Below, in pieces: positions 223 through 64,000 of a DNA stretch of 64,000 nucleotides. Below the pieces are notes generated by a model, which searched no databases, had not been told where the DNA came from, and saw nothing but the letters and a program-made list of their open reading frames with translations. Position 1 is the first letter of the stretch. Each line of letters opens with the position of its first letter. This DNA is from Escherichia coli (lineage in GTDB: Bacteria > Pseudomonadota > Gammaproteobacteria > Enterobacterales > Enterobacteriaceae): NCBI RefSeq assembly GCF_011045215.1, contig NZ_CP049201.1. The stretch is one strand, 5' to 3'. Position numbers and translations under genes: made by a program.

Positions 223-768
223 TTACAAACCAACGCGCGCTTTCATCCAGCCATAGACAAACGACTCATTGGCCTCGCGTTTCTCTGCCAGCTCCAGATA
301 ACGCTCGCCCTGCGTACAGTTCAGGGCTTTCACCAGTACCAGTTCACCATCCCTGCTGCGATTTTTCAGATATGCCCGTAACGCATTAAGAGTACGCGGT
401 CCGATGCGTCCATCTGCATCCATATCCGGATAGAGTTTCCCGCGCAGGTTAAAAACATTCAGCCAGCGCTGAAGCATTCTGGACGCCACGGCTGGTCCCA
501 TGTTCACGCCCGTGTCGCACAACTCTGCGGCAATATCCGGAGACAGATTCTCAACCTGGTCGAATCGTGGTCCGTACCAGTAGTCCGCCTCGAGTATTTC
601 CAGCGCCTGCCCACGCGTCAGGTCACGCATATCGCCCTGATAACCGTGTGCACGGGCAACTTTTTCAGTGATGCCCCATTTAGTCGGACCACCTTTATCA
701 TCCGGGTGATTGACGTAACCGCCCTCTTTTCCCAGAATTTCGTCAAAAATTTCATCTTTCGACTTCAT
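223..768 (-). CDS. Endolysin, GH108-type N-acetylmuramidase with C-terminal peptidoglycan-binding domain
   Basis: MKSKDEIFDEILGKEGGYVNHPDDKGGPTKWGIT motif typical of the GH108 family. ATG at 768 lies next to the stop of the upstream membrane-protein gene (TGAtATG). Confidence 0.85.
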   Translation of the reverse strand: MKSKDEIFDEILGKEGGYVNHPDDKGGPTKWGITEKVARAHGYQGDMRDLTRGQALEILEADYWYGPRFDQVENLSPDIAAELCDTGVNMGPAVASRMLQRWLNVFNLRGKLYPDMDADGRIGPRTLNALRAYLKNRSRDGELVLVKALNCTQGERYLELAEKREANESFVYGWMKARVGL

Positions 769-769
769 A

Positions 770-1048
770 TCAGCGCCTTCGTAATACAAGGATTTTTGAT
801 ACGTTCCCGCGTGCTCGTATCACCAGCACGCAGAACACCAGGTTAATCAGGACGACCAGCCAGTTACCGGGTGGAAAGCGACCACACAGATAACAAAGCG
901 GCGCAAAGGCATAAAGCAGCATCAGCAGCCAGGCCAGCCACGACATCAGCGGTTTATGTCTCGACTCACCACGACGATAAAAAAAGAGCGTCAGCACGAT
1001 AACCGTGCTTAACACCACATTCAGTAATCCGGGAAGGTTACTTAACAT
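770..1048 (-). CDS. Small multi-pass membrane protein of the lysis cassette (holin/antiholin-like)
   Basis: 92 aa with several hydrophobic helices and a basic C-terminal tail (RARGNVSKILVLRRR). GGAGG lies 5 nt upstream of the ATG at 1048. Sits between the holin and the endolysin. Confidence 0.65.
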   Translation of the reverse strand: MLSNLPGLLNVVLSTVIVLTLFFYRRGESRHKPLMSWLAWLLMLLYAFAPLCYLCGRFPPGNWLVVLINLVFCVLVIRARGNVSKILVLRRR

Positions 1049-1427
1049 TACCGCCTCCACCCCGCAGACGGGAGAACAGCCCGGATACCAGCGATGCGAT
1101 ATCCTGCTGGTGGATGAATGAGAGAATCTTCACTGACACCACCGATACCAGTACCGCACAAAGCGCGTCGAGAGATGTGCTGTGGAGATTCAGTTTTTCA
1201 ACCAGGTAAGACGCCATCACATCCGCCCCCAGCACGCCAACAATGAACGACACCAGAAAATGCGCTGCCACACGCCAGACAGAAATCTTCTGTGGTATCG
1301 TGGCCACAAACAGCGCCCCTGCGAATGCACCAAACACAATCCCGAAATCCGTTCCGGTAAACAGCCCGAATACCGTCGCCCCGCCGAGCGCCGCAGCCGT
1401 GCCGGAACCGGATAAGGGTTCAGACAT
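1038..1427 (-). CDS. Putative phage holin (130 aa, Gly/Ala-rich transmembrane helices)
   Basis: MSEPLSGSGTAAALGGATVFGLFTG... with multiple TM segments. AGGAG SD upstream of the ATG at 1427. First gene of the lysis cassette. Confidence 0.65.
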   Translation of the reverse strand: MSEPLSGSGTAAALGGATVFGLFTGTDFGIVFGAFAGALFVATIPQKISVWRVAAHFLVSFIVGVLGADVMASYLVEKLNLHSTSLDALCAVLVSVVSVKILSFIHQQDIASLVSGLFSRLRGGGGNVK

Positions 1428-1441
1428 ACTTTTTCTCCTGT

Positions 1442-1467
1442 AAATAAAAAAGGGCCGCTGTCGGCCC
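1442..1467 (-). terminator. Rho-independent terminator immediately upstream of the holin (tR'-like)
   Basis: Minus-sense GGGCCGACAGCGGCCC hairpin (1452-1467) followed by UUUUUUAUUUA. Confidence 0.7.
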
Positions 1468-1593
1468 GTAAAAAAACACCCCGTCAAAGGCACCCGCAGA
1501 TGCCTTTTGTGTGGTGTTATCTGGTGTTTTCTGATGTGGTGTGTGCAGGACACAGATGTGAAAAAGGTCCGCCGGTACGAACCCTGTGTATGG

Positions 1594-1621
1594 ATAAAAA
1601 AATGCCCGTCATGAGACGGGC
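1594..1621 (-). terminator. Second minus-strand Rho-independent terminator upstream of the lysis genes
   Basis: Minus-sense GCCCGUC-UCAU-GACGGGC hairpin (1604-1621) followed by AUUUUUUUAU. Confidence 0.65.
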
Positions 1622-1674
1622 TAACGCATTCATCATGCAAGAGTTAAGCAGGATTACCTGTATCGAATTATCGG

Positions 1675-1896: not shown

Positions 1897-1972
1897 TGGA
1901 GAACGGTGGCGGGAATCGAACCCACATCATCAGCCTGGAAAGCTGAGGTAATAGCCATTATACGATACCCGC
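1897..1972 (-). tRNA. tRNA-Gly(UCC)-like element with an unpaired acceptor stem (probable pseudo-tRNA)
   Basis: The reverse complement GCGGGTATCGTATAATGGCTATTACCTCAGCTTTCCAGGCTGATGATGTGGGTTCGATTCCCGC... matches E. coli glyT as recalled through the D, anticodon and T arms. The 3' strand CACCGTT cannot pair with 5' GCGGGTA. Confidence 0.5.
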
Positions 1973-2190: not shown

Positions 2191-3237
2191 TTAAAAATCT
2201 TTCGTTATTTCTCTGACCGTCTGATTAAAACGTTCCTCTTCCAGTTCCACGCCAATCGCCCTGCGTCCCAGCAACAGTGCCGCTTTTATCGTGGAACCTG
2301 ACCCCATAAAAAAATCTGCGACCAAATCGCCTGGACGGCTGCTGGCAGTAATTATCTGACGCAACATATCCGCCGGTTTTTCACAGGGATGTTTGCCCGG
2401 ATAATACTGCACGGGCTTGTGCGTCCAGACATCCGTATAAGGAACGACAGCCGATACGGAAAAATAACGCCGCAGTGATTTGTATTCCTCCAGCAGGCTG
2501 ACATATTGCCGGTTCAGTTCGCTGTATGTGCTGACCAGCTGGTGATGTGGCTGCTCCAGTTCACCGCGCTGGTGTTTTTCTGCCGCCACACGTGCAAACA
2601 GCGCCTGCAGTTTACTGTAATCGGCCTCATTCGGTAACTGCCACTGACTGGTACCAAACCAGTGCGAAACCATGTTTTTCTTTCCGGTGGCTTCAGCTAT
2701 CTGTTTTGACGTTATCCCCAGTGATTCACGCGCATCACGGAAGTAAGAAATCAGCGGGGCCATCACGTGCTGTTTAAGCTCGCGCCCCTTTGCCGCATAG
2801 CCGTCATTTTTTGGCTGGTATGGCCCCTGATAATGTTCAGCAAACAGAATGCGCTCTGTTGCCGGGAAATACGCCCGCAGGCTTTCCTTGTTGCACCCGT
2901 TCCAGCGTCCGGACGGCTTCGCCCAGATAATGTGGTTCAGCACATTAAAGCGCTCACGCATCATGATTTCGGTGTCAGATGCCAGGCGATGACCACAGAA
3001 CAGGTAAAGACTTCCGGCAGGCTTCAGTACCCGCCAGAACTGCGCCAGACATCGGTCCAGCCATTGCAGGTAATCATCGTCGCCCTTCCACTGGTTATCC
3101 CAGCCCTCGGGCTTCACTTTAAAGTATGGCGGGTCTGTGACTATCAGATCGACAGAGTTTTCCGGTAATGTCCGGATAAATTCCAGGCAATCCGCGTTGA
3201 TTAACTCACAACTGGATATTTTTACAGTATTAGCCAT
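2191..3237 (-). CDS. DNA methyltransferase (N6-adenine/N4-cytosine, beta class), orphan
   Basis: DPPY motif (IVTDPPYF) is N-terminal and FFMGSGST (AdoMet motif I) is C-terminal. No adjacent endonuclease-like ORF. Confidence 0.85.
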   Translation of the reverse strand: MANTVKISSCELINADCLEFIRTLPENSVDLIVTDPPYFKVKPEGWDNQWKGDDDYLQWLDRCLAQFWRVLKPAGSLYLFCGHRLASDTEIMMRERFNVLNHIIWAKPSGRWNGCNKESLRAYFPATERILFAEHYQGPYQPKNDGYAAKGRELKQHVMAPLISYFRDARESLGITSKQIAEATGKKNMVSHWFGTSQWQLPNEADYSKLQALFARVAAEKHQRGELEQPHHQLVSTYSELNRQYVSLLEEYKSLRRYFSVSAVVPYTDVWTHKPVQYYPGKHPCEKPADMLRQIITASSRPGDLVADFFMGSGSTIKAALLLGRRAIGVELEEERFNQTVREITKDF

Positions 3238-3387: not shown

Positions 3388-3585
3388 TCACTGCGAAAGG
3401 CGTCTGTAACAACCGAACTGATAATCTGCCAGACCCGCCATAACAAGCTGGGTCAGTATTAACTGGCAGCGTTCGCGTGAAAGGTAAGTATTCTGCGCAA
3501 TTTCCCCGACGGTCGCCGGTTCGGTGACGCTTAATTCATTAAACACCACTCTGGCGGTTTTGGTCATATCCTGCTGTTTTAGCAT
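3388..3585 (-). CDS. Small (65 aa) putative winged-helix DNA-binding protein
   Basis: MLKQQDMTKTARVVFNELSVTEPATVGEIAQNTYLSRERCQLILTQLVMAGL... resembles an HTH. AGGGA SD-like sequence upstream. The longer annotated ORF upstream looks non-coding. Confidence 0.4.
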   Translation of the reverse strand: MLKQQDMTKTARVVFNELSVTEPATVGEIAQNTYLSRERCQLILTQLVMAGLADYQFGCYRRLSQ

Positions 3586-3707: not shown

Positions 3708-3730
3708 CAAAAAACCCGCCTAACGGCGAG
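3708..3730 (-). terminator. Minus-strand intrinsic terminator (candidate tR'-type site)
   Basis: Minus-sense CUCGCC-GUUA-GGCGGG hairpin followed by UUUUUUG. Confidence 0.5.
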
Positions 3731-3902
3731 CTTAAGCTGTGTAGCGAAGTAACCACTCTTAACACACTAAGCGAAAAAATGCGGACCGCGTTAGTGATTT
3801 TTAGCAAGTTTTGCTTTATTTTTCCTACGTACAGTAAAAATAAGAAATCAATTCCAGCCAGGCTGGCTGAGTTAACACAGGTCTTAGAATGAGGGAACTT
3901 CT

Positions 3903-4913
3903 TTGTACGAAATACATTACGACGTTGAGTCTGAACAGCAAGCTTTTGAATTACTTGAACGTTACCTAAACGGACAAGCTTTACCCGAAAAAATTAGTTT
4001 CAATGGTTGGCCAAGTCTAACCATCAGGTTGACTGGTGAAAAATTCAACAAATCACTCACACCTTCAGTTATGAAAGGATTTGTTGAAATGCAATCGCAA
4101 CTCAATAAGTCTTATGCGCTAGCAAAGTTCGGAACTCCTGATGTCCGCAGGCTAACAAAAGAAGAACTTGATGCTTTAGAAATTGAAGTTACAGTAGAGC
4201 AAGGTTCATCTCTTGTAGAGATTAACATTGATGGCTTCCTAAGCAAGCTTACGCACGAACTGGTAGGGAAAATGAACGCCACAGAGATTGTATTTACGGT
4301 TCTCGGTGCTGCCGTTATATGGGGCGGTGTAACCGTCTTCAAACGCTATCTGGATAACCGTAAAGATACTCGGTTGGCTGAAATTGCTAAAGAAGGCGAC
4401 AAAGAACACCTACGCGCAATGCAAGTGATGACACAGGAGGAAACAAAACGCCTCCAAATCATCTCAGAAATGGTGGCTAAAAAACCTCTACTCGACAATA
4501 TGGATCGAATGTCTTATGACGCTAAAACCACCATGGTTAAATCTTTCGTGCGTTCAGATTCAGCAGAAATTGACGGTGTCACAATAGATTCAGAAACGGC
4601 AAAAGAGCTAGTAACAAATGCTCGTCGACGCTCAGTTGAAATGAGAATAGACGGTATATACCGTATCGAAGAAGTGAATAATACCGACCCCGAAAGCTTC
4701 AAAGTTAAGGTTCGAAAGGTCGATTCTGATCAACGTTTGACCTGCGTTGTTCAGGATATATTCCTTGATGAATCAGGGAACAAAGAAGCCTTACAGCGAG
4801 CTGAATGGGAAAGAAAGCCTGTGCATTTAAGCATCAATGCCAAACACATTGATGGAGATATCAAGTCCGCCGTAATTTTACATGTGAAAGATGTTGAAGA
4901 TAAGCCCGAGTAA
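3903..4913 (+). CDS. Hypothetical 336-aa single-pass membrane protein, counter-oriented moron
   Basis: TTG start with GAGGGA (3891-3896) 6 nt upstream. One hydrophobic helix (IVFTVLGAAVIWGGVTVF) between two charged soluble regions. AT-rich. Opposite strand to all neighbours. Confidence 0.75.
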   Translation: MYEIHYDVESEQQAFELLERYLNGQALPEKISFNGWPSLTIRLTGEKFNKSLTPSVMKGFVEMQSQLNKSYALAKFGTPDVRRLTKEELDALEIEVTVEQGSSLVEINIDGFLSKLTHELVGKMNATEIVFTVLGAAVIWGGVTVFKRYLDNRKDTRLAEIAKEGDKEHLRAMQVMTQEETKRLQIISEMVAKKPLLDNMDRMSYDAKTTMVKSFVRSDSAEIDGVTIDSETAKELVTNARRRSVEMRIDGIYRIEEVNNTDPESFKVKVRKVDSDQRLTCVVQDIFLDESGNKEALQRAEWERKPVHLSINAKHIDGDIKSAVILHVKDVEDKPE

Positions 4914-4928
4914 TCGGGCTGTCTGGTT

Positions 4929-5309
4929 TCAAGATTCCACTTCGGCATCCATTTCTAAACTTACATCCAACATACTCAGGCAACCGTCGATAAACCCTTC
5001 AGCCATCTGTATCTCTATACGTATCAATTTCTCATCCTTCCAACGCGCCTTTGCAATCTTGCGCTTGGATATCCTGTATAAATAATGTGCCACAAGAAGC
5101 GAATGCTCATAAGGCCTTTTTTGCTTTAAACAAGCAAGACAACCTTCAATAATTAATGCGTCACTATCTGAACAAGCCAGGCGTTTCTTACTGGTATAGG
5201 GCAGAAGTCCCTTAAACCCGGCAGCTATAGGTGAATAGTCCACACCCGAGCTATCACTAGCCGCCCATGCCCCCCAACGCTCAAGAACCATCTGAATATC
5301 ACGCGCCAT
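4929..5309 (-). CDS. Late-gene antiterminator Q (DLP12 QuuD / phage-82 type)
   Basis: MARDIQMVLERWGAWAA...AAGFKGL...QMAEGFIDGCLSMLDVSLEMD matches QuuD as recalled. AGGTGG SD. Overlaps the rusA stop. Confidence 0.85.
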   Translation of the reverse strand: MARDIQMVLERWGAWAASDSSGVDYSPIAAGFKGLLPYTSKKRLACSDSDALIIEGCLACLKQKRPYEHSLLVAHYLYRISKRKIAKARWKDEKLIRIEIQMAEGFIDGCLSMLDVSLEMDAEVES

Positions 5310-7492: not shown

Positions 7493-7648
7493 TTACTCCT
7501 CAGATTCGTAAGCTGTGAAGACAGCGACCTCCGTCTGGCCGGTTCGGATTCGTACCTCGCAGAGGTCTTTCCTCATTACCAGTGCCGTCACTATGACGGT
7601 TAAACAGATGACGATCAGGGCGATTAACATCGCCTTTTGCTGCTTCAT
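7493..7648 (-). CDS. hok: Hok-family type I toxin (HokD/RelF-like, 51 aa)
   Basis: MKQQKAMLIALIVICLTVIVTALVMRKDLCEVRIRTGQTEVAVFTAYESEE is near-identical to HokD as recalled. Confidence 0.9.
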   Translation of the reverse strand: MKQQKAMLIALIVICLTVIVTALVMRKDLCEVRIRTGQTEVAVFTAYESEE

Positions 7649-7850
7649 AGCCTGCTTCTCCTTGCCTTTCGGCACGTAAGAGGCTAACCTACGTTTGTGT
7701 AGCATAGATTGGGCCTCAGATTAATGTTAAGCGTCTTGCCGGACGCGTAATGTTAACTGGGGCTTTTCTCTGTCTGCCTTACAGTGGCATGCCCGAGGCA
7801 GACAGCCTCAGGCACCCGCAACAATCTTACCGACACCGATAAGAAAACGC
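7649..7850 (-). promoter_or_regulatory. hok mRNA leader (mok region), expected to be overlapped by an antisense Sok-type RNA on the plus strand
   Basis: An in-frame upstream extension (mok-like) runs to 7705. Long-range inverted repeat ctgtctgcc/ggcagacag at about 7771-7815. Candidate plus-strand promoter TTGCCT-17-TAACCT at about 7661-7689. Exact Sok ends not determined. Confidence 0.45.
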
Positions 7851-18449: not shown

Positions 18450-20885
18450 ATGAGCACTGATAAAGAAGAATTTGCATTATATTGTGAAGCAAAAAATGAC
18501 AAAGTCAGAAAACGCCTTGGAATTAAAGGTGGTTTTTACTGGACTACAGCAAAAAAATTATCTGTTGCCATCTCCCGCTGCATTACCGCAATGGATGACA
18601 ACGATTATGATGAAGACGACTTTAAAAAACCCGTCCGCGTCCATTTACCCGTTGTGAATGACCTTCCACCTGAAGGCGTGTTTGATACTGAATTCTGTAA
18701 CCGTTACGAAAAAGGCGGGGAAGATGGCATCACAATGGTATTTATCGCGCCCTCACCCTCTGCGCAGGACAAACCAGCCAACATTGACAATACCAACGTC
18801 AACGGCGAAGACATGACTGAGATTGAGGAGAACATGCTCCTGCCGGTTTCAGGTCAGATTCTGCCTGTTCGATGGCTGGCACAGCACGGCAGCAAAAAAC
18901 CGATCACACACGTTTCGCGGGACGAACTGCGCGCATTACATAACGCACAGGATGAAAAACTTCCCGCCGTTACCGCGCTGGCTATCTCAAATAAAGCAGC
19001 GCAACTCGAACCGCTGGAGATTCGCGATCTCCACAAACTGGTGCGAGACACTGACAAAGTTTTCCCCGCCCCCGTAAATTCGGACCTGGGACTGATAACC
19101 TCTTTTATCGAAGCATACCTAGACGCCGACTACACCGATCGCGGTCTGCTGACAAAAGAGTGGATGAAAGGAAATCGTGTTTCGCGTATCACCCGTACGG
19201 CTTCCGGTGCAAATGCCGGTGGCGGGAACAAAACCGATCGCAATCCGAATTTAGTACACACCTTCGATACGCTGGATGTGGAGATTGCAACAGCCACACT
19301 TCCGATGGATTTTAATATTTATGAAATTCCGGGCAGCGTTTATCGTCGCGCAAAAGAAATCGTCCTGAAAAGAGAAAGTCCGTTCAAAGAATGGTCCGCA
19401 GCACTTCGCGCAACCCCGGGTATTCTGGATTATTCCCGCGCCGCTATTTTTGCACTTATCCGGAGCGCTCACCCTGAGTTTTATCACTACCCGGGACGCC
19501 TTCAGGGGTATATCAACGCCCACTTAACGGAGACTGATCACGAGAACCCCAGCAAGGAAACTCTCACTGCTGCACGACATACACCGGAAAAAGACATCCT
19601 GGAAGAAGTTAACCGCGAACTGGCTGCTGAACGCGAAACAGAAGAAGAAAAAAATAATGAGGAAAAATCACAACCGTCTGACGCAATGGCAGATGAACAG
19701 GCAACGACTGAAGCAATGGGACAGGATACAACTGAATATCGCCAGGACACACAATCGCTGGATACTCAGGCACAGATAAATCCGGTTAATCAGGTAAAAG
19801 TTACCGCTGACGAAGTAAACAAAATTATGCAGGCAGCCAATATCAACCAGCCTGATGCCGACAAAATACTGGCAGTCCATCGCGGTGAATTCGTTGACGG
19901 AATTAGCGACCCGAATGATCCGAAATGGGTTAAGGGGATTGAAACCCGCGATTCTGTGAACCAGAACCAGCCCGAATCGGAACAAAACAGCCAAAATGCG
20001 TTACAAAACGAGCCAGAAACGAAACAGCCTGAACCAGAAGAGCAACAAGAACCGGAAAAAGTCTGCACCGCCTGCGGTCAGACCGGCGGCGGCAACTGTC
20101 CTGACTGTGGCGCGGTGATGGGCGACGCAACATACCAGGAAACATTCGATGAAAAAAATCAGGCTGAAGTTCAGGAAGATGATCCGGAGGAAATGGAAGG
20201 CGCTGAACATCCGAACAATGAGAATGCTGGTAACGATCAGTATCACGCCAGCGATAGTGAAACTGGCGAGGCGACAGATCCCTTAATTAATGTGAACGGT
20301 CATCACGAAATCACATCCACCAGCAGTACGTGTGACCATCTAATGATCGACCTTGAAACCATGGGAAAAAATCCTGATGCCCCGATTATCTCAATAGGTG
20401 CAATATTTTTCGATCCGCAAACCGGAGATATGGGACCGGAATTTAGTAAGACTATAGATCTGGAAACAGCTGGCGGAGTCATTGATCGTGACACCATTAA
20501 ATGGTGGCTTAAGCAATCACGCGAGGCGCAATCTGCCATTCTGACCGATGAAATCCCGTTAGATGATGCACTGTTGCAATTGCGGGAATTTATCGACGAA
20601 AACTCCGGCGAATTTTTTGTTCGTGTCTGGGGAAATGGAGCCAGCTTCGACAACGTAATTTTACGCCGTTCATATGAACGGCAGGGGATCCCCTGCCCGT
20701 GGCGTTACTACAACGATCGCGATGTACGCACAATTCTTGAACTGGGAAAAGCCATAGACTTCGATGCCAGAACGGCTATTCCATTCGAAGGCGTACCCCA
20801 CAATGCGCTGGACGATGCCCGTCACCAGGCAAAACAAGTTTCAGCTATCTGGCAAAACCTGATCCCGAGTCAGGCTGATTTTTAA
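18450..20885 (+). CDS. RecE N-terminal-region homologue fused to a DEDDh 3'-5' exonuclease domain (YdfE-like; commonly annotated exodeoxyribonuclease VIII)
   Basis: Residues about 110-640 track K-12 RecE as recalled (NTNVNGEDMTEIEENMLLP, LTKEWMKGNRVS, CTACGQTGGGNCPDCGAVMGDATYQETFDE). The C-terminus has DLET...NGASFDN...HNALDDA exonuclease motifs. Confidence 0.8.
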   Translation: MSTDKEEFALYCEAKNDKVRKRLGIKGGFYWTTAKKLSVAISRCITAMDDNDYDEDDFKKPVRVHLPVVNDLPPEGVFDTEFCNRYEKGGEDGITMVFIAPSPSAQDKPANIDNTNVNGEDMTEIEENMLLPVSGQILPVRWLAQHGSKKPITHVSRDELRALHNAQDEKLPAVTALAISNKAAQLEPLEIRDLHKLVRDTDKVFPAPVNSDLGLITSFIEAYLDADYTDRGLLTKEWMKGNRVSRITRTASGANAGGGNKTDRNPNLVHTFDTLDVEIATATLPMDFNIYEIPGSVYRRAKEIVLKRESPFKEWSAALRATPGILDYSRAAIFALIRSAHPEFYHYPGRLQGYINAHLTETDHENPSKETLTAARHTPEKDILEEVNRELAAERETEEEKNNEEKSQPSDAMADEQATTEAMGQDTTEYRQDTQSLDTQAQINPVNQVKVTADEVNKIMQAANINQPDADKILAVHRGEFVDGISDPNDPKWVKGIETRDSVNQNQPESEQNSQNALQNEPETKQPEPEEQQEPEKVCTACGQTGGGNCPDCGAVMGDATYQETFDEKNQAEVQEDDPEEMEGAEHPNNENAGNDQYHASDSETGEATDPLINVNGHHEITSTSSTCDHLMIDLETMGKNPDAPIISIGAIFFDPQTGDMGPEFSKTIDLETAGGVIDRDTIKWWLKQSREAQSAILTDEIPLDDALLQLREFIDENSGEFFVRVWGNGASFDNVILRRSYERQGIPCPWRYYNDRDVRTILELGKAIDFDARTAIPFEGVPHNALDDARHQAKQVSAIWQNLIPSQADF

Positions 20886-20949: not shown

Positions 20950-21198
20950 ATGGCAAGACTTATTCTGCTCACTGAGTGGGCAAAAGAGGAATTCAGCGAT
21001 CCGGTCCCTACTCCGGGCACGTTAAGTAAATACGCTAAAGCCGGAATGATATTTCCTCTCCCCAAAAAAGTTGGAAGACACTGGCGAGTGGATCCACGAG
21101 CTCGCTTTGTCGGAATGGTAAACAAGCCGGAGGTGATCGCCACAGATCACCCTGCTTTGAAGAGGATACTGGAAGATGGCGCGCCCGCGAAAATATAA
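20950..21198 (+). CDS. xis: Excisionase (lambda Xis-like)
   Basis: LTEWAKEEF...GMIFPLPKKVGRHWRV resembles the lambda Xis fold sequence. Overlaps the int start. Confidence 0.8.
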   Translation: MARLILLTEWAKEEFSDPVPTPGTLSKYAKAGMIFPLPKKVGRHWRVDPRARFVGMVNKPEVIATDHPALKRILEDGAPAKI

Positions 21199-22306
21199 AA
21201 CCGAAGTTCCGGGACTATCTCCGTATTTTGACAAAAGAAATAACAAAGTTTACTGGCGTTACAGGCATCCCATAACAGGCAAAAATCACGGTCTCGGCAG
21301 TATTGACCAGAAACTGGCAGAAACTATTGCAGCAGAAGCGAACAGCCGTCTTGCCAGGCAGCAAATGGAACAAATGCTCAGTCTGCAGGAGAAAATTATT
21401 AATGATACCGGCGGTTCATCAACCGTTTCCATTTTTCTGAATAATTACAGAAAAATTCAACAGGAAAGATATGAAAACGGAGAGATCAAACTCAACACGC
21501 TGAAACAAAAAGCGGCCCCTCTCAGGGTATTTGATGAACGTTTTGGCACCAGACCGTTAGATGCCATAACTGTAAAAGATGTGGTATCGGTGCTGGAAGA
21601 GTACAAGGCCAGAGGACATAACAGAATGGGGCAAATTTTCAGGAAGGTACTGATCGATGTTTTCCGGGAAGCTCAGCAAACAGGCGATGTTCCGCCAGGC
21701 TTTAACCCTGCAGAATCGGCAAAAAAACCGCAGGTGCGGATATCAAGACAGCGACTGACTTTTGATGAGTGGATGATGATTTATAACGCAGCGGAAAAGG
21801 ATGGTTACTTTTTACAGCGCGGCATGCTGCTGGCACTGATGACAGGCCAGCGCCTTTCAGATATTTGCAAAATGCAATTTTCGGATATCCGGGATGGTTA
21901 TCTTCATGTCGAACAGCAAAAAACAGGAACCCGGATTGCCATCCCTCTTGCTCTGCGTTGCAATAAATTAAATCTCACCCTGGATGATGTGGTGTCATCC
22001 TGTCGCGATTGCGTTCTTAGTCCGTGGCTATTGCACCACCATCATGCGAAAGGGACAGCCAAGCGCGGCGGGATGGTTAAGCCAGCAACGTTAACAGTTG
22101 CATTTAAAAAAGCGCGGGATTCTGTGGATTACAACTGGCGTGCTAATGGCACCCCACCCTCTTTCCATGAGCAGAGATCTTTATCAGAGCGATTGTTCAG
22201 AGAGCAGGGAATTGATACCCAAATTTTGCTGGGTCATTCGAATCAAAAAATGACCGATATTTACAACGATGCACGCGGCAAGGAGTGGAAAAAACTGGTC
22301 ATTTGA
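21176..22306 (+). CDS. int: Tyrosine integrase (lambda Int family)
   Basis: 376 aa. C-terminal catalytic region with HHHAKGTA...LLGHSNQKMTDIYNDARG (H-x-x-R / Y motif context). Last phage gene before ompW. Confidence 0.9.
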   Translation: MARPRKYKTEVPGLSPYFDKRNNKVYWRYRHPITGKNHGLGSIDQKLAETIAAEANSRLARQQMEQMLSLQEKIINDTGGSSTVSIFLNNYRKIQQERYENGEIKLNTLKQKAAPLRVFDERFGTRPLDAITVKDVVSVLEEYKARGHNRMGQIFRKVLIDVFREAQQTGDVPPGFNPAESAKKPQVRISRQRLTFDEWMMIYNAAEKDGYFLQRGMLLALMTGQRLSDICKMQFSDIRDGYLHVEQQKTGTRIAIPLALRCNKLNLTLDDVVSSCRDCVLSPWLLHHHHAKGTAKRGGMVKPATLTVAFKKARDSVDYNWRANGTPPSFHEQRSLSERLFREQGIDTQILLGHSNQKMTDIYNDARGKEWKKLVI

Positions 22307-47186: not shown

Positions 47187-47252
<66 letters not shown>

Positions 47253-47271
<19 letters not shown>

Positions 47272-47449
47272 TCACTTTCAAAAGTACCTGAACTCTCAAG
47301 CGAATCCGTAAATAAATATTCTGCCCAAGCGGGGAAGGACGAGAAGCTTCGACCAAGGTTCGACTCGAGCGCCAGCGAGAGAGCGTTGCCGCAGGCAACG
47401 ACCCGAAGGGCGAAGCGCGCAGCGCTGAGTAATCCTTCCTCCACCACCA
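47253..47449 (+). repeat. tyrT-distal 178-bp repeat carrying a copy of the tRNA 3' end
   Basis: aatccttcccccaccacca (47253) recurs as aatccttcctccaccacca at 47431, exactly 178 bp later. This is the known tyrT operon repeat (rtT/tpr region). Confidence 0.8.
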
Positions 47450-63414: not shown

Positions 63415-64000
63415 CCACTGCAACAGCTGTTGAAAAGCCGGAATGTACTCTTCATTGCAAACATTTCAGGGATGAAGTGAAGATGAATTGAGACGTAGTA
63501 TCCACACCAAGCCGGCGTTATCCGGTGAGGCGCAATGTTGCGGGGGCTTTATCCCTGGTGGCATTGGTTGCTGGAAAGAGAAAACCCCCGCACGTTGAGA
63601 GGTAAAACCTGACAACAGAACGGGGGCTAATCTTGAAACCAGACACTTCAAGAATAGCCGCAAAATGTTGTCATTACAACAAGGCGGCTATATGACGCTC
63701 GCGCAGTTTGCCATGACTTTCTGGCACGACCTGGCGGCACCGATCCTGGCGGGAATTATTACCGCAGCGATTGTCGGCTGGTGGCGTAACCGGAAGTAAG
63801 GTGAAAACGGGCGTCAGGCTGCCGTGATGGCAATATGCGCCCGAAACCGGCCGCAGGGGTAACAGCCTGCGGCCATTTTTGTCTTTATCACTTCCACAAG
63901 TAAATATTGGCAACCCGAGCTGGAAGCATCATCCAGAGCACTCATGAAACGACTGTAACAGCTGTTGAAAAACCGGAATGCACTCTTCATTGCAAACATT
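63415..64000 (+). repeat. Long direct repeat (LDR) units of the ldr/rdl type I TA locus. One full unit plus the start of the next.
   Basis: caacagctgttgaaaagccggaatgtactcttcattgcaaacatt (63421) recurs at 63957 with 3 mismatches, a period of 536 bp. Confidence 0.85.
63692..63799 (+). CDS. ldrC: Ldr-family type I toxin (35 aa)
   Basis: MTLAQFAMTFWHDLAAPILAGIITAAIVGWWRNRK. The symbol is assigned only by position next to chaA. The antisense Rdl RNA was not mapped. Confidence 0.8.
   Translation: MTLAQFAMTFWHDLAAPILAGIITAAIVGWWRNRK

Follow-up and report, generated by a model that had tools for sequence, protein, structure and literature searches.

A single gene that runs against all of its neighbors raises the question of what it contributes to the phage that carries it. 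In the window analyzed here (a stretch of 64,000 nucleotides (nt) from Escherichia coli contig NZ_CP049201.1, assembly GCF_011045215.1), such a gene is located in a prophage, between the gene for antiterminator Q and the late genes. We call it ORF336, for its open reading frame (ORF) of 336 amino acids (aa). The genes flanking it are all on the minus strand, as an earlier reading of the sequence alone had described. That sequence-only reading took ORF336 for a candidate superinfection-exclusion or abortive-infection gene. The genomic context reported below and a published machine-learning prediction make the candidacy reasonable. Our own estimate is an about even chance that ORF336 is a single-protein antiphage factor, one that would combine a ligand-binding OB fold at its C terminus with a hydrophobic helix of conserved position.

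A variable cargo slot beside antiterminator Q

The gene and the elements that bound it are as follows.

3780–3800: 21-bp block TGCGGACCGCGTTAGTGATTT, candidate qut, overlapping the putative pR′ −35 region on the minus strand
3903–4913, plus strand: ORF336 coding sequence (family phrog_6191), 336 aa, with a TTG start that is kept in both genomic contexts of the family
4929–5309, minus strand: antiterminator Q (Pfam Phage_antitermQ PF06530, E 4e-50), the right flank, co-inherited with the 3780–3800 block

Among relatives in which the family gene converges on Q, homology spans about 3732 to 5304, and its left end falls at 3732–3747, at a terminator, regardless of the DNA found further left. The non-coding DNA at 3749–3825 is better conserved than the coding sequence and holds the 21-bp block, which is near-invariant; no Rfam family matches this conserved non-coding block. 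When IMG/VR was scanned for the block (TGCGGACCGCRYTARTGATTT), at least 118 loci were recovered. An ORF336-family gene was present in 35 of these, and 64 had the same Q type (67–96% identity) without it. In the latter, the block-to-Q interval measured 0.57–2.2 kb and held at least 11 other cassettes, with every ORF on the strand that ORF336 uses. Including ORF336, 12 cargo types are flanked by the block and the same Q type. The possibility that the block is a private promoter of ORF336 was ruled out by the 64 loci that have block and Q without the gene.

Several of the alternative cassettes match known or candidate defense genes. The most frequent, in 19 loci, was a KAP-type NTPase identified as PDC-S20 (PADLOC E 4e-177), which also matches PifA. 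PDC-S42 (PADLOC E 4e-30), accompanied by two small membrane proteins, was found in 10 loci, a TIR protein (PADLOC TIR-TM 2e-57; Pfam TIR_2) in four, a methyl-directed restriction endonuclease (mREase_II, PADLOC 1.5e-26) in two, and an AriA/GajA-like ATPase in one. Phage phiP27 has a Q of 54% identity, and there the gene L22, a homologue of SNIPE/PD-lambda-1 (PADLOC E 2e-89), lies between Q and the same late leader. The sequence-only reading had raised the exchange of ORF336 for known defense genes as a question, and such exchange is what we see for PDC-S20, PDC-S42, TIR, mREase_II, and the SNIPE homologue of phiP27. Because the same flanks hold interchangeable cassettes that include known and candidate defense genes, and because phiP27 adds the SNIPE homologue, we regard the slot as a defense hotspot. 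Closely related prophages hold unrelated cargo in place of ORF336, so the gene is dispensable. Taken as a whole, 3732–5309 is, to judge from these comparisons, one inherited module: Q, the slot for cargo, a regulatory region in which a putative late promoter with qut (reading left) and a putative cargo promoter (reading right) stand back to back, and tR′ as the terminator.

The same arrangement was found in bacterial chromosomes. In RefSeq E. coli chromosomes, identical flanks surround either a gene annotated as ‘KAP family NTPase’ or a cassette of three genes. A 123-nt flank query, with terminator, leader, and block in its first 63–70%, had a match of some kind in 1,256 of 5,426 complete E. 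coli genomes, and that first part was matched in many of them; the shortest matches covered the leader alone. A flank extending into the 5′ untranslated region (UTR) of ORF336 was present in only 87 E. coli genomes, which agrees with the 85 genomes that carry the gene.

Some slot cassettes have no match in Pfam or PADLOC. They consist of pairs of a soluble protein of 300–370 aa and a multi-transmembrane protein of 150–180 aa, and of one three-gene set (L107, L104, L108, L137, L164, and L216), and by their position they are candidate defense systems. The ORF336 family showed no homology in hhalign comparisons to three slot representatives (the PDC-S42-like protein and proteins of 313 and 355 aa). 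HepS/RemAIN of Gifsy-1 were considered as occupants of the same slot and rejected, since in SEN34 the slot downstream of cI is occupied by a different small helix-turn-helix (HTH) gene.

The sequence-only reading had called ORF336 a moron in the Q-to-lysis slot, the position that carries stx. Accessory cargo in a variable slot after Q is indeed what the comparison reveals, but the slot runs from Q to the late promoter pR′. In classic Stx phages, the stx genes lie downstream of pR′, and stx therefore occupies another slot than ORF336.

Family members in other genomes

To see where the family resides, we surveyed the context of 98 family loci. In 50 of them (24 distinct proteins, 70–100% identical to ORF336), the gene converges on Q with a gap of 5–23 nt, and close relatives of ORF336 are convergent on the same Q type without exception. 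In another 29 (11 distinct proteins, 31–67% identical), the gene lies directly behind a repressor-sized gene and is co-oriented with it. Among the upstream neighbors, eight of the ten distinct ones scanned carry Peptidase_S24, with or without HTH_3 (Pfam). Among the remaining loci are a P2-like and a Mu-like element (L011). In the P2-like element, the gene comes after an HTH repressor and a gene for 145 aa and borders gpD; in L011, it has the same orientation as late genes. In the contexts without Q, a canonical terminator is found 10–45 nt after the stop codon of the family gene. The hosts of the family include Moraxella, Acinetobacter, and Pasteurellaceae.

In one Pasteurellaceae locus (L020, 5075–5926), the place ahead of the family gene is taken not by a repressor but by a gene of the same orientation for a 283-aa KilA-N-domain protein. 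The KilA-N domain is also found in the BstA defense protein.

Within E. coli, the orthologue WP_000357056.1 is 86% identical to ORF336 and shares its synteny and slot.

ORF336 is a genuine gene of a large family

Searches of Pfam, NCBIfam, PADLOC, and PDB sequences returned nothing significant for ORF336. It belongs to an unnamed family: the PHROG hidden Markov model (HMM) of phrog_6191, for which no function is assigned, matches residues 3–334, that is, the full length, with an E value of 8e-143. A word-indexed search identified 82 homologous clusters at 90% identity, all of them named ‘hypothetical’, from Enterobacter, Escherichia, Salmonella, Klebsiella, Serratia, Pantoea, Yersinia, and other hosts. 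An exhaustive profile (HMM) search reached 1,408 representatives at 50% identity, 504 of them below 1e-30; nearly all are 320–350 aa long and match end to end. The best-conserved motifs of the family are GEKFxxSLTPSVMKGFVEMQ, GSS, NARR, DGxYRI, AEW, and INAK.

The coordinates, the TTG start, and the Shine-Dalgarno sequence agree with those given in the sequence-only reading. Further features of the gene are listed here.

3854–3866: palindrome of 13 bp, CCAGCCAGGCTGG, lineage-specific, within what is predicted to be the 5′ UTR
3891–3896, plus strand: Shine-Dalgarno sequence GAGGGA, 6 nt 5′ of the TTG
4903–4920, plus strand: hairpin AGCCCGA-GTAA-TCGGGCT, with the TAA stop inside the loop, −16 kcal/mol

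In an alignment of 22 relatives, codon positions 1 and 2 were conserved at 0.8–1.0 and position 3 at 0.5–0.7. This codon-position conservation, the size of the family, and the uniform full-length matches place ORF336 beyond a chance reading frame: it is a genuine gene under purifying selection. The GAGG motif 5′ of the TTG is kept in all Q-convergent relatives. A TTG start with a GAGG-type Shine-Dalgarno sequence is also kept in distant members and in both contexts (window 3903; L004, L015, L073–L077, L090, L092, and L100), and the retention of this rare start suggests selection for low translation.

The stop codon of ORF336 is 15 nt from that of the convergent Q gene. The hairpin that bears it, already seen in the sequence-only reading, is near-invariant across the 22 Q-convergent relatives and is predicted to be a terminator or insulator of the cassette against Q. 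The AT-richness pointed out earlier is also there, with a G+C count of 23 in 3961–4020. The window as a whole has a GC content of 48.9% and the flanks are at about 50%, whereas ORF336 is at 41.5%; since Q is likewise low (45.1%), the low-GC unit is ORF336 together with Q. The palindrome upstream of the gene exists as described. The stretch around it is not conserved among relatives, so it is probably no functional site, and its candidacy as an operator was dropped.

Putative late promoter, candidate qut, and putative cargo promoter

In the usual layout, the Q gene comes first, then pR′, which carries both a Q-binding element and a sigma-dependent pause element, and last a terminator (bioRxiv 10.1101/651190; PMC6266700). 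The corresponding elements proposed for the window, and a promoter-like element pointing toward ORF336, are these.

3709–3730, minus strand: candidate tR′, CTCGCC-GTTA-GGCGGG-TTTTTT, intrinsic terminator (−17.8 kcal/mol), left boundary of the Q module
3749–3769, minus strand: putative pR′ core, with −10 TAGTGT at 3769–3764, then GTTAAGAGTGGTTAC at 3763–3749, and +1 at ~3757
3794–3822, plus strand: putative cargo promoter, with −35-like GTGATT at 3794–3799, a 17-nt T-rich spacer, −10-like TATTTT at 3817–3822, and a predicted start near 3829

On the minus strand, a TAnnGT hexamer directly before GTTAAGAGTGG is kept in every locus, with the terminator next. The equivalent in phiP27, downstream of L22, reads TTGCGG-17 bp-TATCCT-GTTAAGAGTGGTTAC, and the phiP27 sequence at the position equivalent to the 3780–3800 block is different. 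Within GTTAAGAGTGGTTAC, AAGAGT is −10-like and is a candidate sigma-dependent pause element. The terminated pR′ transcript is predicted to be ~48 nt long and to end at 3709–3714, with transcription passing tR′ only when Q is made. From these elements, we place pR′ and qut, with a confidence somewhat above even, at about 3757–3800 on the minus strand; the candidate qut, the 21-bp block, would then cover positions of roughly −23 to −43, with tR′ downstream at 3730–3709. We also considered a pR′ right after Q, within the 3′ end of ORF336. The 22 relatives reveal no added synonymous-site conservation there that would mark a promoter, and the sole Q-linked non-coding element is at 3749–3800; this placement was rejected.

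The window thus resembles a canonical Q cassette in its PF06530 Q, its putative −10, its −10-like transcribed element, and the strong intrinsic terminator before the late genes. It differs in that Q and the putative promoter are not adjacent but 1.1 kb apart, with a counter-oriented gene between them. That the cassette separates Q from its pR′/qut target, which the sequence-only reading had stated without locating the target, fits the placement proposed here.

On the plus strand, (G/A)TGATT is invariant in the block, and TAnnnT is found 17 nt downstream in the loci where the spacing was counted (the window, L108, and L150). Most of the remaining cargo types have a TAnnnT-like hexamer near the same position; L191 and L120 have no clear one. 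Homology between cargo types stops within the 17-nt spacer, and all cargo ORFs begin 50–140 nt downstream of the promoter-like element, in the same direction. The element looks like an outward promoter common to the cargo types, with its −35 inside the conserved flank. Because back-to-back promoters would overlap the putative Q site, Q binding might alter cargo expression at induction. The shared outward element, along with the distant relatives that lie behind a CI-type repressor and have a terminator of their own, makes the orientation for expression in the lysogen, as proposed in the sequence-only reading, plausible.

In phiP27 (L003, 5442–5537, minus strand), a near-consensus TTGATT-16 nt-TAAAAT is present in the 94-nt gap between Q and L22. 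The element suggests constitutive expression of L22 from a separate promoter, located upstream of the late one.

Protein model and the hydrophobic helix

The AlphaFold model of ORF336 is confident and compact (predicted template-modeling score, pTM, 0.82), without flexible linkers. It contains an alpha/beta domain (~1–120), a hydrophobic helix (126–146), a helical region to ~215, and a C-terminal OB fold (~220–330), which is the only recognizable fold. In the predicted model, its five-stranded barrel matches OB-fold proteins and resembles domains of SSB, PriB, RecO, and RPA.

The sequence-only reading had called ORF336 a single-pass membrane protein. We used as the criterion for a membrane segment a stretch of at least about 19 residues with a Kyte-Doolittle value above 1.6 and a conserved position. 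The segment EIVFTVLGAAVIWGGVTVF (residues 128–146) has a 19-residue mean of 1.89, and a hydrophobicity peak is found at approximately residue 129 in 204 of 213 representatives, with a median of 1.77; 147 of the 213 reach 1.6. The position of the helix is therefore conserved. Several observations count against membrane anchoring. The helix is only moderately hydrophobic, and it is preceded by a 125-aa acidic domain without a signal peptide. The central-position Hessa values of the helix, added as a simple sum, come to +2.5 kcal/mol. In the AlphaFold model, the helix is the segment of highest confidence and is packed within the compact body. Lysine and arginine average 4.0 after the helix compared with 1.9 before it, which favors a C-in topology; export of the 125-aa N-terminal domain without a signal peptide would then be needed. 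Mean-field co-variation (248 sequences, Meff 167) was calculated for burial of the helix; its top-ranking pairs were noise dominated by hubs and were discarded. Given the moderate hydrophobicity, the acidic N-terminal domain without a signal peptide, and the place of the helix inside the compact model, the single-pass call is doubtful, while the conserved position of the helix stands. As a rough estimate, we lean slightly toward a helix that is buried, or latent and membrane-active, and consider a constitutive anchor the somewhat less probable state.

Relation to known defense systems

The family context behind repressors recalls rexA/rexB of lambda. Distant relatives of ORF336 lie right behind a co-oriented S24 CI-type repressor and are followed by a terminator, as in cI-rexA-rexB, and because of this position their expression would track that of a lysogen-expressed immunity operon. 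However, in hhalign comparisons of the ORF336 family with RexA and RexB the probability was below 1%, indicating no homology. ORF336 is also a single protein, whereas RexAB consists of a sensor and a channel with four transmembrane segments. In addition, ORF336 of the window lies outside the immunity operon and converges on Q; the position downstream of cI is seen in 29 of the 98 related loci.

SNIPE (PD-lambda-1) is an experimentally validated, membrane-bound GIY-YIG nuclease (PMC13190303). It resembles ORF336 in being single-gene prophage cargo, with a homologue in the equivalent slot of phiP27; SNIPE also pairs a hydrophobic anchor with a nucleic-acid-binding domain. In contrast to SNIPE, ORF336 has neither a DUF4041 nor a GIY-YIG nuclease domain and no PADLOC match, and its hydrophobic helix is at 126–146, whereas that of SNIPE is within the first 70 residues. 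The slots also differ in that L22 of phiP27 is co-oriented with Q, while ORF336 is counter-oriented.

A close precedent for the slot is provided by the defense hotspots of P2 and P4, in which conserved flanks enclose swappable cassettes and known defense systems are mixed with uncharacterized genes (PMC9122126, Rousset et al. 2022). The logic is the same here, and the family member in the P2-like prophage, beside gpD, offers a further likeness. The slot of the window differs in being nested in the lambdoid antitermination module of Q and qut-pR′, with a promoter element for the cargo that apparently lies in the conserved flank.

ORF336 also has a counterpart in a published prediction. Table S10 of DefensePredictor (sheet ‘uncharacterized_clusters’) gives WP_000357056.1 as a ‘Putative novel defense gene’, with a mean log-odds of 6.55 (range 4.5–9.7) at a strict cut-off of 4 (PMC13092281). 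This entry is a computational prediction and falls outside the 118 transcription units that were cloned for DefensePredictor. We found no description of a defense hotspot between Q and pR′ in the literature and no paper that names the family, but an earlier description is possible.

Proposed role and alternative explanations

If ORF336 is an antiphage factor, the outward promoter would drive its transcription in the lysogen, the conserved TTG would keep its translation low, and the hairpin that bears the stop codon would end the transcript. The protein would act against superinfecting phages, by exclusion or by abortive infection. Its C-terminal OB-fold domain may bind a phage-derived ligand (nucleic acid or protein), and the central hydrophobic helix may anchor ORF336 in the inner membrane or insert into it upon activation. 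A bolder version, to which we give a rather low probability, is that the slot is an undescribed defense hotspot nested in the antitermination module, in which the −35 of the cargo overlaps the Q site. Loading of Q at induction would then turn on the late genes while shutting off or modulating the defense cargo, and ORF336 would found a single-protein family with an OB-fold sensor and a membrane-active helix.

A number of points weigh against an antiphage role and against the promoters assumed for it. There is no known catalytic signature among the conserved motifs of the family, and because neither a catalytic motif nor an effector domain is recognizable, no particular mechanism can be named; the match to the OB fold is a generic one. 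The family is absent from PADLOC, and a literature search with the protein accession and the PHROG id returned no experimental report for any member. The motifs of WP_000357056.1 are absent from the sequences of proteins validated for DefensePredictor, and the validation rate of that method was 45% (PMC13092281). Inferring defense from the company a gene keeps in a hotspot yields a substantial share of false positives. The −35 of the proposed pR′ is poor, the promoter assignments are weak consensus matches, and a consensus promoter scan called none in the region upstream of ORF336.

The alternative that deserves the most attention, though we consider it unlikely, is that ORF336 is a lysogenic-conversion gene that alters the physiology or envelope of the host (stress tolerance, colonization, or receptor masking) without direct antiphage activity. 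Some morons that lie counter-oriented in the interval from Q to the lysis genes have functions other than defense, such as porins, and toxins are found further downstream; iss, too, lies near the lysis genes. A conserved hydrophobic helix with no recognizable defense domain would suit this role. On the other hand, every identifiable alternative cargo of the slot is of the defense type, and the other main context of the family is the position of rexAB in a repressor operon. Moreover, the phages that carry the family are lambdoid, P2-like, and Mu-like, and their hosts differ widely (including Moraxella, Acinetobacter, and Pasteurellaceae); with this range of phage types and hosts, conflict between phages fits better than a host-specific trait.

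We think it improbable that ORF336 serves the lytic cycle, either as an OB-fold, nucleic-acid-binding replication or recombination factor or as a modulator of lysis timing. The resemblance of the OB fold to domains of SSB, PriB, RecO, and RPA and the co-orientation with late genes in Mu-like L011 would agree with such a role. However, 50 of the 98 loci are transcribed against the early and late operons, the 29 loci behind a repressor-sized gene would, like lambda cI-rexAB, presumably cease to be transcribed on induction, and the gene is replaced by unrelated cargo in close prophages. A regulatory or selfish role has a similarly small probability. Convergent transcription or promoter competition could damp Q and the late genes and so stabilize lysogeny, as might be expected from 12 cargo types that share an orientation and a promoter-bearing block overlapping the proposed qut; alternatively, ORF336 could be a toxic addiction factor, with the TTG start suggesting dosage sensitivity and a hok/sok module present in the same prophage. 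But a conserved hairpin or terminator stands between the cargo and Q, there is no antitoxin partner, and strong purifying selection is seen over >1,400 representatives, also in contexts that lack Q. Since this selection acts family-wide, including where there is no Q, the protein itself is the selected product. The antiphage reading retains the about even chance that we gave it at the outset.

Other features of the window

The genes on either side of the module are all on the minus strand, and are listed here from the late side.

223–1640, minus strand: endolysin and two holins (lysis genes)
2191–3237, minus strand: DNA methylase
3388–3585, minus strand: small winged-HTH protein of 65 aa, with a weak TrmB match, the first gene downstream of tR′

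The late leader to which the winged-HTH gene belongs is conserved, and phiP27 shares it, as do many prophages of E. coli. In the interval from methylase to holins, 1902–1972 (minus strand) gave an Rfam tRNA match of 36 bits and was not called by ARAGORN; it is possibly a degenerate phage tRNA, and phiP27 has ileZ and argO at the same position. Q itself matched the Q21 structures weakly (E 0.043). Beyond Q are RusA and a DUF968 protein, also on the minus strand. The hok/sok-type module lies in the early region of the prophage (7493–7817, minus strand), with a 70-aa ORF of the Hok/Gef family at 7493–7705 and the sok antisense RNA at 7643–7817 (Rfam, 109 bits). In the early-left region, 18450–20885 (plus strand) encodes an 811-aa protein with an Exonuclease VIII (RecE-like) domain and an Rv2179c-like 3′-5′ exoribonuclease domain. 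A lambda-type integrase at 21176–22306 (plus strand) probably marks the end of the prophage, and the remainder of the window is host DNA, which includes a tRNA-Tyr, an RtT element, and rdlD antitoxin RNA (47187–47449 and 63579–63644). The closest protein relatives come from the Enterobacter cloacae complex.

Significance

That prophages carry hotspot cargo is known as a kind of arrangement, and what is uncharacterized here is the protein family and the nesting of a hotspot within an antitermination module. The separation in the window indicates that Q and its putative qut need not adjoin, which is relevant when late promoters are annotated, also in toxin-converting phages (phiP27, for example). 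The slot between Q and pR′ is a compact and searchable hotspot, bounded by the 21-bp anchor and by the Q stop, and it provides a handle for mining lambdoid prophages for defense genes. It has already yielded several uncharacterized two- and three-gene cassettes alongside known systems. With >1,400 sequence clusters, the family of ORF336 ranges from Enterobacterales to Moraxella and Acinetobacter, and the prophages that carry it are of lambdoid, P2-like, and Mu-like type. If it is protective, it would be a widespread single-gene system without a recognizable effector domain, and its mechanism would probably be new.

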